Below, piece after piece: positions 30,889 to 35,848 of a DNA stretch of 64,000 nucleotides (its first letter is position 1; every line of letters begins with the position of its first letter). The stretch covers positions 5,759 through 69,758 of the forward strand of contig CAVRNL010000015.1 in the NCBI GenBank assembly GCA_963722485.1, in the 5' to 3' direction. This DNA is from an uncultured Acidobacteriaceae bacterium (GTDB taxonomy: Bacteria > Acidobacteriota > Terriglobia > Terriglobales > Acidobacteriaceae). The notes beneath the pieces are model-generated. The model ran no database searches. It was not told where the DNA came from and saw only the letters and a program-made list of their open reading frames with translations. Made by a program: the position numbers and the translations under genes.

Positions 30889-32283
30889 TTGCTGCTTTCC
30901 ATAGAAAAACTGATCTACGGCGGTGACGGCCTAGCCCGCACGCCAGCCGGCGCGGACGGACGCAGCATGGCGGTGTTTGTGCCGTTTGTGCTGCCGGGTG
31001 AAAAAGTCGAGGCCGAGATACGGCAAGAGAAGCCTGGCTTCGCGCGCGGCTCGGTCACGCAGCTGACCGAAGCGTCGTCCGATCGCATCGAAGCACGCTG
31101 CCCGTACTTCCGCCAATGCGGCGGATGCCATTACCAGCACATCCCTTACGACCGGCAAATCGATTTCAAGGCCGCGATTCTGCGCGAGACGTTGCAGCGG
31201 ATCGCGAAGATCGAGCTGCAATTCGACCTTCGCCTGCATGTCTCTCCTCCCTGGCACTACCGCAATCGCACGCGCCTGCAGGTGCGAACTGCACCGGAGT
31301 TTCCACCCCAGCCTGCGAAAAGCGCACGGTCTGGGGACCCCGGATTTCCACCCCAGCCCGCGAAAAGCGCGCGGTCTGGGGACCCCGGGTTTGCGCTGGG
31401 ATACTTCCGCGTTGGCTCGCACGAATTTCTGCCGGTGCGCGAGTGTCCCATCAGCTCGCCGCTGCTCAATCGCGTGATGGCGCGTCTGCTTGAGCTCGGC
31501 GGATTGAATTGCCCGTCGGCAGTGGAAGAGATTGAACTGTTCGTGGACGCCGCCGATGAGCGTTTGCTCGCCTGGGCATTCTGCGAGCGCGAGGCTGACA
31601 GGAGAGATCTGCTGCGCTGGGCGGAGGCGCTTGGGCGCGAGTTGCCGGAAATCAGCGGCATGACGTTTTTCTCTTCTCGGCGAAGAACAGAAGACGATGA
31701 CGCGCCCATGGACTCGAAAACCATCGCGCAATCCGGCATGAAGGCACTTCGCTATCGCACGAAGCACGCGGAGTTCCAAGTCAGCGCGGGAGCCTTTTTC
31801 CAGGTGAACCGTCATCTGATCGACGACCTGGTTTCGGTCGTGACCGGCAATGCCAGCGGCGAAGTCGCACTCGACTTGTACGCGGGGGTGGGATTGTTTT
31901 CGGCCACGCTGGCGCAAAACTTTCATCACATATTTGGTGTAGAGGCGTCACAGACATCGTATGGCGACTTCGTGCAGAATGTCCCTGCGAACGTGAAAGC
32001 GGCCGGGGCGCGAACCGAGGATTACCTGAGAAACCGGCCGGTGCGAAAAAGGCCTGACCTGGTCGTCCTGGACCCTCCCCGCACCGGGGCCGGCAAGGCG
32101 GTTATTCGCTCTCTGGTGGAACTCGGAGCGCCCCGTGTCCGATATGTTTCGTGCGATCCGGCGACGCTGGCCAGGGATGTCGCCCCCCTGCTGGCGGCTG
32201 GATACCACATCGAGGAAGCACACTTATTCGATCTCTTTCCGGAGACGTTCCACATCGAATCGGTGATGCTGCTGGCGCGCTGA
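30889..32283 (+). CDS. rlmD: 23S rRNA (uracil-5)-methyltransferase RlmD/RumA-like
   Basis: TRAM-like N-terminus, Fe-S cysteines CPYFRQCGGCHYQH, SAM-binding region LDLYAGVGLF, and catalytic region VSCDPATLARD. Confidence 0.85.
   Translation: MLLSIEKLIYGGDGLARTPAGADGRSMAVFVPFVLPGEKVEAEIRQEKPGFARGSVTQLTEASSDRIEARCPYFRQCGGCHYQHIPYDRQIDFKAAILRETLQRIAKIELQFDLRLHVSPPWHYRNRTRLQVRTAPEFPPQPAKSARSGDPGFPPQPAKSARSGDPGFALGYFRVGSHEFLPVRECPISSPLLNRVMARLLELGGLNCPSAVEEIELFVDAADERLLAWAFCEREADRRDLLRWAEALGRELPEISGMTFFSSRRRTEDDDAPMDSKTIAQSGMKALRYRTKHAEFQVSAGAFFQVNRHLIDDLVSVVTGNASGEVALDLYAGVGLFSATLAQNFHHIFGVEASQTSYGDFVQNVPANVKAAGARTEDYLRNRPVRKRPDLVVLDPPRTGAGKAVIRSLVELGAPRVRYVSCDPATLARDVAPLLAAGYHIEEAHLFDLFPETFHIESVMLLAR
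31300..31389 (+). repeat. two tandem 45-bp REP-like units, in-frame in rlmD-like gene
   Basis: TTTCCACCCCAGCCTGCGAAAAGCGCACGGTCTGGGGACCCCGGA occurs twice with 3 differences. Each unit is an imperfect palindrome (CCCCAG...CTGGGG) and encodes FPPQPAKSARSGDPG. Confidence 0.85.
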
Positions 32284-33041: not shown

Positions 33042-35741
33042 ATGATGCGCACCCTCAAGCCGCCACGGCAGCCGTTGTTCTGGGCCGCCTTGGTATTTTC
33101 GCTCGGTCTGTGGACGGGCGTCCGCGCCTGGCGTCCACCGTCGTGGTGGGTGATCGCCTTAGTCGTCTTCACTTTTGCGGCATCATGGTTTCTTCCCAAA
33201 CGAGCCTGGCTGGCCAAGGCGCTCGCTTTGGGCGCGTGGTTTCTTCTAGGCGCTTTTCTGATTCAGGTTCGCGGTCAGCCGCCGCACGCACTGCAGGATG
33301 ACGCTCGAATTCTCACCCTCGCCGATGGCCGTGAAGTAACTCTTACAGCGCATGTGATGCGTGAGGGCTACTCGCGGTCCGCAGGGCCGCGCTCGATTCG
33401 TGAATCGATTGATGTGGAGACCGAAGAGATCGCGAGCCAAGGTGAAAGCTGGCCGGTGCGAGCCGGAGTGCGGCTGACGATTTACAAGACGGTGGAGGAT
33501 CGGGCCATCGGGTCATCGGAAAATCGGGTGATCGGGCCATCGGGCCATCGGGTGATCGAAGGTCAAGGGCATTTGGATCTCAATGACCCGATCACCCGAT
33601 CACCCGATCACCCGATCCCTCTGACCTACGGCACGCGCCTTCAGATTCTCGCCAAGTTGCACCCCGCGCGCAATTACCGCAATCCCGGAGCCTTCGATTA
33701 TGAAGGCTATCTCCGCGACAACGGCATCAGCGTGCTCGGCTCGGCCGAGGCAACGGACATTTCGCGACTTCCCGGATTTTCCGGCAGCCGCATTCAACTC
33801 TGGCGGACGCGCGTTCATGCCAGCATCGTGGCCAAGATTCACCAATTATGGCCCGCGTCGCAGGCCTCGCTCATGGACGCCATGGTGCTCGGCGAAGAAT
33901 CGTTCCTGCGCAATGCGACCCGCACCGAGTACCAGCGCTCGGGCACGTATCACGTGCTGGTAGTTTCCGGGATGAACTTGAGCATCCTGGCGTTCGCCAT
34001 TTTTTGGACGCTGCGCCAGTTTCGCGTCGATCCCGCGCTGGCCGCCCTCACCACGGTCGTGGTCTCGTTCGCATACGCATTCGTAGTCGGCGTCGGCCCG
34101 CCGGTATGGCGCGCCGCGTTGATGCTGGCAACATACCTAGGCGCGCGTCTGCTCTATCGCGAACGCAACATGATGAACGCCATTGGAGCCGCCGCGCTGG
34201 GAGTTCTGATCGTCGATCCGCATGCCCTGTTTGGCGCCAGTTTTCAGCTCACGTTTCTCGCTGTCTTCATCATCGCCGGCATCGGCTCTCCCATTCTCGA
34301 ACGGACAACGCTGCCCTACGCGCGCGGTCTGCGCCTGTTGCAAGCTGCCAGCTACGATTTGCACTTAGCTCCCAAGGTGGCGCAGTTCCGGCTCGACCTG
34401 CGGTTGATCGCAGGGCGGCTGAAAAGATTCGTCGGCGACCGCCTCAGCCTGGCGCTGCCCGCGATCTTCATGCGGGCAGCCATCGGCGTGGGCGAATTGA
34501 TCTTCATCTCGGCGCTGATGCAGGCGGGACTGGCGCTGCTCATGGCGTATCACTTTCATCGCGCCACCACCATGGGAATGCCGGCCAACATGGCGGTGAT
34601 TCCGCTCACCCAGGTGCTGATGCCCGCTGCCGCCGCCGCCGTCGGCTTGGGATACATCTCGACAGTTCTGGCCAAACCCGCGGTTTGGATCTCCGGCTTC
34701 GCGCTCGAAGGGATTGCGGGAACGGTGCACTGGCTCGGCGGCGCCCAACTCGCTGGAGCATCGATTGCCGATCTGCGCGTAGCCATGCCCACGCTCACGA
34801 TGATTCTGGCTTCGATTGCCGCCCTGGCGCTCGCCATGCTGGCGGCGCAAATCCGTCGCGCGCGCTGGGCCGCGTTCGCTTCCGTGGCGTTGTTGTTCGC
34901 CGTTGCCGGATGGATCGCGTTTTTCCCGTCGCGCCCTCACCTTCACGCCGGCGTGATGGAGATGACCACCATCGACGTCGGACAAGGCGATTCCATTCTT
35001 CTGGTCACGCCCGAGGGCCGCGCCATCCTCATCGATGCCGGAGGCATTCCCCAGTGGATGCATTCCGATTTCGATCTCGGCGAACAGGTGGTCTCTTCGT
35101 ATCTTTGGAATCGCGGCATCGATCGTCTCGACGTGGTCGCCATCACCCATCCTCATGCCGACCACCTCGGTGGAATGCCCGCGGTGATTGCAAATTTCCA
35201 CCCGCGAGAACTCTGGATCAGCATCGACAAACCGGCGGGCGAACTGGCGCCCATCGTTGCCCAAGCCCAGCGCGCGGGAATGAATGTGTCGGTAAAACAA
35301 GAAGGCGATCAATTCGATTACGGCGGAGCGCATTTCCAGATGCTCGCTCCCGGACGCGACCAAATTACCGGCTCGATGCGCCCGAACGACGATTGCCTTG
35401 TGTTTACGGCCAAGTTCGGCGGCACCACCGCTTTACTAGAGGGAGACGCGGAGCGTCCAGCCGAACGGCGCGTCGTCGAAGAGCATCCCGAGGCGATGCT
35501 GCTGAAGGTGGCCCATCACGGCAGCGCCAGTGGAACCTCTGCCGATCTGCTAGCGACTGTTCATCCGCGCTACGCTGTTATTTCCGTTGGTGCGCGAAAT
35601 GTGTATGGACATCCCCGGCGCGAGGTCCTGGAACGGCTGCAGCAAGCTGGCGTGAAAACCTACCGCACCGACGAGGAGGGCGCTATCAGTTTTTACCTCG
35701 ACGGCAAGTCCGTGACTCCGGACGTGGCGCTTCTCCACTGA
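33042..35741 (+). CDS. comEC: DNA internalization competence protein ComEC/Rec2
   Basis: Multi-TM competence domain (SGTYHVLVVSGMNL) and a C-terminal metallo-beta-lactamase domain (ITHPHADHLGG, VAHHGS). Confidence 0.9.
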   Translation: MMRTLKPPRQPLFWAALVFSLGLWTGVRAWRPPSWWVIALVVFTFAASWFLPKRAWLAKALALGAWFLLGAFLIQVRGQPPHALQDDARILTLADGREVTLTAHVMREGYSRSAGPRSIRESIDVETEEIASQGESWPVRAGVRLTIYKTVEDRAIGSSENRVIGPSGHRVIEGQGHLDLNDPITRSPDHPIPLTYGTRLQILAKLHPARNYRNPGAFDYEGYLRDNGISVLGSAEATDISRLPGFSGSRIQLWRTRVHASIVAKIHQLWPASQASLMDAMVLGEESFLRNATRTEYQRSGTYHVLVVSGMNLSILAFAIFWTLRQFRVDPALAALTTVVVSFAYAFVVGVGPPVWRAALMLATYLGARLLYRERNMMNAIGAAALGVLIVDPHALFGASFQLTFLAVFIIAGIGSPILERTTLPYARGLRLLQAASYDLHLAPKVAQFRLDLRLIAGRLKRFVGDRLSLALPAIFMRAAIGVGELIFISALMQAGLALLMAYHFHRATTMGMPANMAVIPLTQVLMPAAAAAVGLGYISTVLAKPAVWISGFALEGIAGTVHWLGGAQLAGASIADLRVAMPTLTMILASIAALALAMLAAQIRRARWAAFASVALLFAVAGWIAFFPSRPHLHAGVMEMTTIDVGQGDSILLVTPEGRAILIDAGGIPQWMHSDFDLGEQVVSSYLWNRGIDRLDVVAITHPHADHLGGMPAVIANFHPRELWISIDKPAGELAPIVAQAQRAGMNVSVKQEGDQFDYGGAHFQMLAPGRDQITGSMRPNDDCLVFTAKFGGTTALLEGDAERPAERRVVEEHPEAMLLKVAHHGSASGTSADLLATVHPRYAVISVGARNVYGHPRREVLERLQQAGVKTYRTDEEGAISFYLDGKSVTPDVALLH
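33497..33618. repeat. hairpin with tandem-octamer arms (ATCGGGNN units), in-frame inside comEC
   Basis: The left arm has 7 units of ATCGGGNN. The right arm is GACCCGATCACCCGATCACCCGATCACCCGATCC. The outer GGATCGGG/CCCGATCC pair closes a 122-nt element. Confidence 0.8.
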
Positions 35742-35848
35742 AATAAGGCCAGGTTTCAAAGTTTCAAGGTTTCAATGTTTCAGCGTCGCTTTCTGATGTT
35801 CAGACATTGAAACTCTGAAACTTTGAAACTTTGAAACCTGGCCTTATT
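35742..35848. repeat. hairpin with tandem-octamer arms, GTTTCAAN family
   Basis: AATAAGGCCAGGTTTCAAAGTTTCAA pairs perfectly (26 bp) with its complement, and the pairing continues imperfectly. It spans exactly from the comEC stop to the stop of the convergent gene. Confidence 0.85.

Follow-up and report, generated by a model that had tools for sequence, protein, structure and literature searches.

The window, by which we mean the whole stretch of 64,000 nucleotides that was analysed, contains on its forward strand a comEC gene encoding 899 amino acids (33042–35741), recognized from the open reading frame (ORF) list, its translation, Pfam matches, and two solved ComEC chains (30bt and 9vc6) that the ORF matched. 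Pfam assigned to it a Competence domain (PF03772, 2.6e-47), DUF4131 (PF13567) in two stretches, and Lactamase_B (PF00753); the layout of ComEC comprises three N-terminal transmembrane helices, a periplasmic OB fold (DUF4131), the Competence channel domain, and a metallo-beta-lactamase nuclease domain. The DUF4131 match to the 899-aa ORF was split in two around an insert, and this insert is a hairpin built of tandem octamers.

The element (GATCGGG...CCCGATC), as delimited by repeat, fold, and orthologue alignments, spans 120 nt on the plus strand (33498–33617), corresponding to codons 153–192; its ends fit the alignments with orthologues holding other alleles. Tandem-repeat analysis placed seven tandem ATCGGGNN units in the left arm (33499–33554, plus strand), reading in order ATCGGGCC, ATCGGGTC, ATCGGAAA, ATCGGGTG, ATCGGGCC, ATCGGGCC, and ATCGGGTG. 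A 30-nt loop follows on the same strand (33555–33584; ATCGAAGGTCAAGGGCATTTGGATCTCAAT), with a central motif specific to the family (ATCGAAGGTCAAGRGCCTTTGA..TTCGAT), and then the right arm (33585–33616, plus strand), complementary to the left and made of four units—GACCCGAT followed by three copies of CACCCGAT—with the consensus NACCCGAT (100% matches, period 8, 4.0 copies). An earlier note on this DNA had described a 122-nt hairpin at 33497–33618 with seven left and four right units. Repeat units, pattern statistics, and fold all confirm the hairpin, and the counts hold; the units are not uniform as the note had them, the third on the left being degenerate and the first on the right being GACCCGAT. 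The outer closing pair GGATCGGG/CCCGATCC lies at 33497–33618, where the note had put it, and amounts to one extra G/C pair beyond the 120-nt element. With up to two mismatches allowed, a three-unit pattern matched nine times in the window, always within the hairpin segment, against an average of 0.01 in shuffled sequences. RNA folding, which the note had suggested as a check, gave −68.9 kcal/mol for the segment (z = −4.1), a value that none of 200 shuffles equalled. In Rfam, the hairpin fell below gathering thresholds, with miRNA precursor models reaching at most 35 bits where at least 78 are needed, as generic hairpin matches.

The comEC reading frame is intact across the insert: exactly 40 codons are added, reading DRAIGSSENRVIGPSGHRVIEGQGHLDLNDPITRSPDHPI, and length differences among the variants present in some 25 related species are always divisible by three, typically amounting to 24 nt or three units. 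This conservation of the frame suggests that codons 153–192 are translated as part of ComEC, as the earlier note had it. The note's assignment to the N-terminal extracytoplasmic part also agrees with the position of the insert, in the loop that joins predicted strands three and four of the OB fold, a domain that a cryo-EM study places in the periplasm, where it contributes to the DNA entrance (PMC13539106). An AlphaFold2 model built from 31 close orthologues shows residues 152–190 as coil, with pLDDT of about 28–37 compared with about 80 in the neighbouring strands; the model as a whole is of low quality (mean pLDDT 51.9, pTM 0.33), so only its local picture, of N-terminal OB-fold strands and a low-confidence insert, is usable. 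The insert is best read as a predicted disordered loop in the periplasmic OB fold.

As the source genome is a 127-contig draft, the assembler might have placed a collapsed or chimeric repeat in comEC. Yet the independently assembled G017, another species of the genus in three contigs, carries this 7+4 element at identical codons (L002/L033), with 117 of 120 bases identical, and about 25 other assemblies hold related forms, all in frame. The G017 copy makes an assembly artefact very unlikely, to the point that we give it next to no weight.

A class of tandem-unit hairpins and its PF05635 genes

The host is a peat-soil acidobacterium. Its genome holds about 195 hairpins with arms of tandem 7- or 8-nt units, that is, paired inverted arrays, and 131 of them include or directly adjoin a long ORF's stop codon. 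A typical stop-proximal member, from another family, begins 12 nt past the comEC stop (GTTTCAAA x3.8 / TTGAAACT x3.9; 35753–35837, no strand assigned; tandem-repeat analysis). The ATCGGG family numbers 27 copies, typically of 4+4 units, which have in common the unit, the ends, and a loop motif (ATC[GT]AA.GTCAA.G.C.TTGA..TTCGAT) whose central part is found in most of them. The comEC copy shares the unit and loop motif of these 27, together with the class architecture of inverted tandem arms, here seven and four units of 8 nt around the 30-nt loop, which bears out the likeness to stop-associated intergenic hairpins drawn in the earlier note; it departs from their usual placement, after a stop or in an intergenic region, by lying inside a coding sequence.

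Most hairpin copies are intergenic, with only about 3% inside genes. In-frame copies are a minority form, comprising 10 candidates, at least five of which, comEC included, have Pfam domains on both sides; the others so flanked number at least four and lie in genes for a GH10 xylanase, RsmH, DnaE2, and an AMP-ligase/acyltransferase. The candidate in LigD (C10:54004) proved to be a different, REP-like repeat of period 9, and three more (C73:125252, C64:27758, and C15:22922) lie in frames unlike real genes and were left uncounted. In intergenic copies about 23% of frames lack a stop, and roughly one copy in three is a multiple of 3 nt long, so frame-compatible insertions should not be rare. Around the 27 ATCGGG copies, flanking direct repeats were no longer than in random controls, giving no sign of target-site duplication, and extra outer-stem complementarity did not exceed that of controls. 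The orthologous accB–accC spacer offered no clean empty site in five species, holding other hairpin families or palindromes. With neither a target-site duplication nor a clean empty site, we infer insertion as such from phylogenetic distribution.

Members of PF05635 (S23p, “rRNA intervening-sequence protein”) are encoded by seven genes in the genome, every one flanked by inverted arrays, and each has a different arm unit, which recurs in a family of 3 to 32 gene-less copies. The gene with ATCGGGNN arms (G000:C31:18502-18861; score 50.3 bits, cut-off 33.8) lies in a gene-carrying copy (G000:C31:18407-18934) that has the ATCGGG-family loop motif on both sides, and it is syntenic in seven genomes. 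Its orthologues at 77% identity or above, eight in eight genomes of the genus, all carry arms of ATCGGGNN, about 4.4 units long, and paralogues at 55–64% identity carry other arm units; the pairing of PF05635 subfamily with arm unit is cognate and strict. Within the literature covered by our full-text search, no paper connected PF05635 genes with arms of tandem units. We know of no catalytic activity for PF05635 proteins, so any role for them in mobility is conjecture.

The comEC loop across related species

Aligning ComEC orthologues had been proposed in the earlier note, which looked out for relatives with the same peptide and no repetitive or palindromic signature in the DNA; among the 70 sequences aligned, wherever relatives share the peptide they share the repetitive, palindromic DNA as well. 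The OB-fold loop occurs in four states: the octamer hairpin (7+4, 4+4, 4+1, or arm-only), a REPIN-like palindrome that we call PalB, the hairpin nested in PalB, and neither. PalB is a dispersed repeat in its own right, with 31 copies in the host genome and 22–47 matches in relatives. In the nested alleles (L028, L031, L081, and L037), GTGGAGCGCCGGG...CCCGTCGCTCCAC, the outer stem of PalB, is retained around the octamer hairpin. The element-free state belongs to basal clades, which show no trace of the ATCGGG array, and in a clade of about 57 sequences the loop is always filled by some structured repeat; L073, L074, L069, and L084 have only 15–20 residues at the insert site. The states are scattered over the comEC gene tree, and the flank tree of 70 sequences requires at least 15 state changes, a figure compatible with re-insertion and with recombination. 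The loop is thus a hot spot in which one hairpin is found nested within another, and the best explanation, judging from these sequences, is that in some species one hairpin replaced the apical part of another.

Because related species hold other hairpin repeats at the same spot, the locus documents the replacement of one such little-understood element by another, and across about 70 related genomes this coding hot spot shows apparent intermediates of hairpin-by-hairpin replacement at symmetric stem positions. Selection for frame acts as a filter that exposes the elementary steps, namely three units at once or 21-nt loop deletions. The loop also takes from 15 to about 60 arbitrary residues, which would make it usable for tagging or engineering the DNA-uptake channel.

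Close relatives have four units in the left arm, the 24-nt gap in the alignment of L034, L047, and L051 corresponding to three units or eight codons, and other losses among relatives amount to 21 nt from the loop and 24 nt from the right arm. Given that unit number shifts by slippage—from four to seven on the left and from four to one on the right—replication slippage of a short ATCGGG-like seed might have built the array within comEC, with no incoming copy. This we consider highly improbable: the 30-nt loop has the family's central motif, which largely refutes such an origin, the 27 dispersed copies and the gene-carrying copy have a matching inverted arm, matching unit variants, and the GATCGGG/CCCGATC ends, and the basal clades lack any trace of the array.

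We instead think it likely that a gene-less copy of the ATCGGGNN-armed class came to occupy a comEC loop site held in sister species by PalB, was changed by frame-preserving steps, and is read through as a disordered loop of 40 residues. An element of this class consists of arms of about four tandem 7- or 8-nt units, with a small PF05635 gene (for an S23p/Avd-like four-helix bundle) between the arms in the gene-carrying form; the comEC copy is a gene-less member, and in some species the octamer hairpin would have taken the place of the apical part of PalB. Only versions that lack a stop and are a multiple of 3 nt long would survive in comEC, and the element would for this reason be read through. 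Frame-preserving steps would have added three units (24 nt) to the left arm and, in relatives, produced the 21-nt and 24-nt losses. That the copy belongs to the family and keeps the frame is directly observed, as are the hot spot, the nesting, and the pairing of gene and arms; the copy is probably selfish and tolerated, the loop may be selectively neutral or selfish, and either the PF05635 protein or hairpin-templated recombination may have driven the movement.

Between the host genome (G000) and G017, the insert agrees at 117/120 positions and the coding DNA on either side at only 81–89%, a contrast that a purely neutral passenger would not predict and that fits recent recombination, concerted unit evolution, or hairpin constraint. 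A function in comEC could reside in an mRNA hairpin, acting as a ribosome pause or as an RNase III site like the intervening sequences of rRNA, or in a useful flexible periplasmic loop near the DNA entrance to which the OB fold contributes (PMC13539106). The conservation of the insert between the two species, the strong RNA fold, and the constant filling of the loop by structured repeats in the clade of about 57 sequences would accord with a function, yet sister species hold the unrelated PalB or nearly nothing (the 15–20 residues of the four sequences above), the peptide varies by allele and is modelled as disordered, and most family copies are intergenic; we regard a function as unlikely.

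Homologous recombination, plausibly through natural transformation, is an alternative that we take more seriously, as quite possible if not what we favour: in place of repeated insertion, it would have produced the scatter of states by spreading a few old loop alleles (hairpin, PalB, and nested) among species. The import of the window's 7+4 allele from a G017-like lineage is possible to the same degree, and concerns how the allele arrived, not what it is. The comEC of the window (L001) is sister to the PalB-bearing L066 (support 100), yet its insert matches that of L033 (G017), a sequence placed elsewhere in the tree, at 97.5% identity, and the odd third unit (ATCGGAAA/ATCGGAAG) is common only to L001 and L033. 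The four nested alleles have the same junction positions, which fits one origin, and the 15 or more state changes on the flank tree also suit shuffling. The flanks point less clearly to such a transfer. Over the left 150 nt L001 is nearer to L066 (88%) than to L033 (81%), whereas over the right 150 nt it is slightly nearer to L033 (89%) than to L066 (83%), and when L001 was compared with L033 and L066 in sliding windows, no tract of recombination stood out clearly beyond the insert. The gene tree is also star-like, and the test for monophyly of hairpin-bearing alleles, on 18 sequences, was borderline (p-AU 0.046).

More tentatively still, and with some doubt on our part, the PF05635 protein may act as the sequence-specific partner of its own 7/8-nt array and, together with the host replication or recombination machinery, swap the apex of a stem-loop already in place for its own hairpin. 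Were this the case, the same process would put intervening sequences at rRNA helix tips and hairpins into the stop-proximal terminator positions found in many phyla, and the comEC loop would amount to a natural time series of it within a coding frame, sister species carrying the PalB, nested, and hairpin-only alleles.

Comparison with known repeats

To our knowledge, no mechanism has been offered in the decades since stop-proximal heptamer repeats (STRR, GGGAATC, and TAACTGA) and rRNA intervening sequences were first described. New here are the comEC hot spot, the replacement of hairpin by hairpin that we propose for it, and the cognate pairing of gene and arms. This pairing, with a syntenic master gene, follows a logic like that of REP-RAYT systems with a protein that is not a transposase; together with the coding hot spot and the frame filter, it makes the question of mechanism testable. 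In REP-RAYT systems and here alike, a syntenic single gene is flanked by its cognate repeat, with tens of gene-less copies mostly just after genes, and PalB, the element replaced in comEC, is itself REPIN-like. REP/REPIN-RAYT systems have features of their own, however—a palindrome of 20–40 nt, a GTAG or CGTC head, and a Y1 HUH transposase gene—whereas here tandem 8-mers form the arms, and a four-helix-bundle PF05635 protein is the product of the cognate gene. The element also differs from a MITE, with no target-site duplication beyond controls and an associated PF05635 gene in place of a transposase.

Rickettsia palindromic elements (RPE), which Ogata et al. reportedly described in 2000, are said to lie in frame within protein-coding genes. 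What they have in common with the comEC element is of a functional kind only: in both cases dispersed palindromes, some of them in frame, add a peptide to a tolerated part of a conserved protein. The host phyla are unrelated and so, presumably, are the sequences; RPEs are not known to have arms of tandem 7/8-nt units or an associated PF05635 gene, and the class to which the comEC copy belongs lies mostly at stop codons, with only the small intragenic fraction given above.

Intervening sequences of 23S rRNA occupy the tip of helix 25 or helix 45 and are removed by RNase III, and Leptospira is one of the bacteria in which they have an S23p ORF. Coxiella burnetii likewise has a 23S rRNA intervening sequence with an S23p ORF (PMC4990558). 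There, a hairpin replaces a helix tip and may carry an ORF of the PF05635 family; here, the apex of PalB appears to have been replaced, and the master copy carries a PF05635 gene. The comEC copy differs in that it lies in a protein-coding gene and not in 23S rRNA, has no ORF, and is presumably translated rather than excised.

Among heptamer repeats, convergent GGGAATC pairs are described from Xanthomonas and STRR-type heptamers from Nostoc (Rehm et al. 2015, PMC4692102), and TAACTGA heptamers from Beggiatoaceae and cyanobacteria (PMC4679880). The heptamers of PMC4692102 cover part of the class to which the comEC copy belongs. Four units are preferred, mostly in intergenic positions within about 50 nt of stop codons; 70–75 convergent pairs could form stem-loops, and 7–11% overlap ORFs (PMC4692102, PMC4679880). 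Both papers propose G-quadruplex or regulatory motifs and are without a link to PF05635 or in-frame hairpins (PMC4692102, PMC4679880). The comEC unit differs from these repeats in being an 8-mer that is not G4-prone. The class in the host genome resembles them in its tandem 7-nt units, about four in number, intergenic and near stops, and its TCAGTTN/TAACTGA family has the same unit as the Beggiatoa heptamer.

The comEC insert: sequence, fold and position

The insert at window 33498-33617, here termed the ATCGGG hairpin, corresponds exactly to codons 153-192 of an 899-aa ORF (33042-35741, +) whose product is ComEC (Pfam PF03772 at 2.6e-47, plus PF00753 and PF13567); these codons translate to the peptide quoted in the earlier note, which had described the hairpin (33497-33618) as read in frame. 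From window 33497 onward, the left arm with its flank is GG-ATCGGGCC-ATCGGGTC-ATCGGAAA-ATCGGGTG-ATCGGGCC-ATCGGGCC-ATCGGGTG, followed by a 30-nt loop between the arms (ATCGAAGGTCAAGGGCATTTGGATCTCAAT) and, up to window 33618, the right arm with its flank, GACCCGAT-CACCCGAT-CACCCGAT-CACCCGAT-CC. Repeat finders reported 6.8 copies of period 8 on the left, 4.0 copies with 100% match on the right, and inverted arms of up to 37 nt with 84% complementarity. All 9 matches to a three-unit pattern (at most 2 mismatches) in the 64-kb window lie within this hairpin (0.01 in shuffles). The RNA folding prediction suggested in the earlier note gave -68.9 kcal/mol (shuffle mean -52.8, z = -4.1), with none of 200 shuffles as stable. 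An Rfam search of the hairpin returned no family match.

The match to PF13567 (DUF4131, OB fold) is split into two stretches with the insert between them, and solved ComEC structures align with the window protein from residue 191 onward. Overall quality of the AlphaFold2 model is low (mean pLDDT 51.9), but its N-terminal part is usable: three helices, then strands 98-107, 118-132, 135-149, 198-207 and 231-246 at pLDDT about 80, the insert residues 152-190 forming coil at pLDDT 28-37. Helix 220-226, with the conserved FDYEGYL, matches alpha-I of the beta-IV to beta-V loop in a cryo-EM structure of ComEC, in which the OB fold is periplasmic and follows three TM helices (PMC13539106). Given the modelled strands, the alpha-I correspondence and the cryo-EM placement, the insert lies in a periplasmic-side loop before beta-IV, consistent with the extracytoplasmic N-terminal location proposed from sequence.

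Alleles and turnover of the comEC loop

Comparison with 18 comEC orthologues from a genome search and 80 from a related-locus search (70 of the 80 parsed) identified this loop as a hot spot for hairpin elements, the residues separating the conserved motifs GVRLTIY and TYGTRL numbering from 15 to about 64. The ortholog alignment, also advised earlier, found the ATCGGG hairpin in relatives in several forms—7+4 units with the loop (the window's L001 and L002/L033 of related genome G017), 4+4 with the loop (L034, L053, L065), 4+4 with a 9-nt loop (L029, L032, L041, L047, L089, L018), 4+1 (L051), and right arm only (L073, L074). A second allele carries a different palindrome of 80-90 nt, named PalB here (GTGGAGCGCCGGGCGTCCTCGCCCGG...GGGACGGGCGAGACGCCCGTCGCTCCAC); in a third, the ATCGGG hairpin is nested in the PalB outer stem (GTGGAGCGCCGGGAA-hairpin-CTTCCCGTCTCTCCAC; L028, L031 (= L003), L081, L037); a fourth is PalB with a small insertion in its left-half loop (peptide SLRQAQGRLS); and basal clades have neither element. 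The small insertion (about 15-24 nt, CTTCGGCAAGCTCAGGGCAGGCTC), seen in the PalB left-hairpin loop of comEC in L036, L042, L046, L057 and L064, is a third nesting level at the hot spot. A tree built on the parts of comEC that flank the loop requires at least 15 changes between hairpin and non-hairpin states, and four well-supported sister pairs have unlike states (L001/L066, L032/L103, L081/L080, L053/L090).

PalB consists of two short hairpins in opposite orientation (GCCGGGCG-TCCC-CGCCCGGC and GACGGGCG-AGA-CGCCCGTC) enclosed by an outer stem (GTGGAGCG/CGCTCCAC), and is dispersed, with 31 copies in the window's genome (G000) and 22-47 matches in four relatives; this inverted doublet with its own dispersal therefore makes it REPIN-like. 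One copy in G000 is at C31:44355-44430, with about 30 more elsewhere. In comEC of many species (e.g., L004-L006, L011, L030) PalB is apparently read in frame, with the predicted peptide VERRASPPGLDAA..GTGETPVAPL.

Aligning L001 with L034, L047 and L051 showed that the 7-unit left arm is 24 nt longer than the 4-unit one, that the short-loop form is 21 nt shorter, and that 24 nt of right arm are missing from the 4+1 form. A single open frame runs through the loop in 70/70 parsed orthologues. Among intergenic ATCGGG copies, 38/162 frames are stop-free and 10/27 lengths are divisible by three, so a compatible in-frame insertion is not improbable.

The inserts of G000 and G017 are identical at 117/120 positions, the adjoining 150-nt flanks at 81% and 89%, and the comEC nearest to that of G000 (L066) carries PalB, not the ATCGGG hairpin. 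An insert more alike than its flanks suggests that an allele was recently transferred, that the units were homogenised or that the hairpin is under constraint, and the flanks are compatible with each. The intergenic accB-accC spacer shows turnover of the same kind as the comEC loop: the ATCGGG hairpin occupies it in G000 (directly after the stop codon, G000:C16:65789-65880, L108) and G007, two other heptamer families are present in G006 and G016, and G005 and G017 have other palindromes there. In the orthologous spacers L113-L117, from five related species, the hairpin family or palindrome differs from one species to the next. Target-site duplications were sought around the 27 ATCGGG copies and not found.

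Hairpin families and PF05635 genes

Tandem repeats are strikingly frequent in G000 (5.17 Mb, 127 contigs, 58.4% G+C), with 692 period-7 and 356 period-8 rows in TRF, and at about 195 sites a 7- or 8-mer array is followed within 200 nt by an array of its reverse complement. Families include GTCGTTG (33 copies), GAGGTCA (27), AGTTCTC/CAGTTCT (24), ATTTGGTA (17), GTTTCAAA (14), TCAGCCA (12) and CAGTTGC (9); a genome search for the arrays of the comEC copy (ATCGGG, ATCGGGNN), as had been recommended, yielded 14 copies by TRF and 27 by motif. The likeness to stop-associated hairpins noted earlier was borne out: 131/195 hairpins contain the stop codon of a long ORF or start at most 10 nt after it, and ATCGGG copies, typically 4+4 units, share their ends and central motif with the comEC copy. 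Another octamer-armed hairpin (GTTTCAAA/TTGAAACT, window 35753-35837) begins 12 nt past the comEC stop codon, and its family has a PF05635 gene (S23p, "rRNA intervening-sequence protein") at G000:C115:22836-23147.

All seven PF05635 genes of G000, each above the curated cut-off, are flanked by inverted 7/8-mer arrays, the unit differing at each (CAGTTGC, AGCTAGG, TCAGTTG/TAACTGA, GTCGTTC, AGGTTTCA, AGAGGTC, ATCGGGNN) and corresponding to a gene-less family with between 3 and 32 members; pairwise protein identity is 20-62%. The ATCGGG-armed gene (G000:C31:18502-18861, 120 aa) has the ATCGGG loop motif on both sides. With its protein as query against 41 genomes of the genus, 8/8 orthologues (at least 77% identity) had ATCGGGNN/NNCCCGAT arms some 4.4 units long, whereas 22 paralogues at 55-64% identity had other units (ATTTGGTA, ATTTGTA, CATTGAGT and others), and the gene is syntenic in seven of the orthologue-bearing genomes. 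Because orthologue arms are constant, paralogue arms differ and synteny holds in these seven, we infer a vertically kept PF05635 gene with cognate arms alongside dispersed gene-less hairpins. We hypothesize from this strict gene-arm pairing that the PF05635 protein, which is without a known catalytic motif, has a role in element movement.

The ATTTGGTA/ATTTGTA family (at least 17 hairpins) is without a PF05635 gene in the 90%-complete G000 assembly; since paralogues in relatives (L135-L152) bear exactly these arms, G000 may have lost its gene or the assembly may have missed it. The PF05635 cassette at G000:C104:8521-8948 is armed with TCAGTTG/TAACTGA; an identical heptamer, TAACTGA, has been reported from Beggiatoaceae, cyanobacteria and Bacteroidetes, where it abounds as a direct repeat (PMC4679880).

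Known systems and other in-frame copies

The comEC element is built and placed like the convergent heptamer pairs of Xanthomonas, in which four units are favoured and the stop is at most about 50 nt away (PMC4692102). With rRNA intervening sequences (IVS) it shares the replacement of a hairpin tip and the association with S23p (PMC4990558), and its effect on genes is, by analogy, like that of Rickettsia palindromic elements. RAYT/REP systems follow the same logic of a kept gene with cognate dispersed repeats, but the PF05635 protein is of another kind. By the features that define these groups, the hairpin is not a MITE, a REP/RAYT element or an IVS. The comEC locus contributes a hot spot with nested intermediates, a rule that units change three at a time, and a clean test of PF05635 gene-arm pairing.

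Other in-frame members of the class, with Pfam domains on either side, occur in a GH10 xylanase, RsmH, DnaE2 and an AMP-ligase/acyltransferase, and one further member in an undefined membrane protein. The DnaE2-like error-prone polymerase ORF holds two in-frame CAGTGGC-type heptamer hairpins (G000:C99:112204-112294 and in the N-terminal part), with peptides ASGQWSVGK...DHWPLATE and AVGSGQWPVAS...AHRPLPTG. Within the ORF upstream of comEC, window 31294-31392 comprises a 45-nt unit x2.2 (92% matches), called REP-like in a separate earlier note; PHFSKNARSGAP, similar to its peptide, is in frame in a LigD-like ORF (G000:C10:54004-54151).
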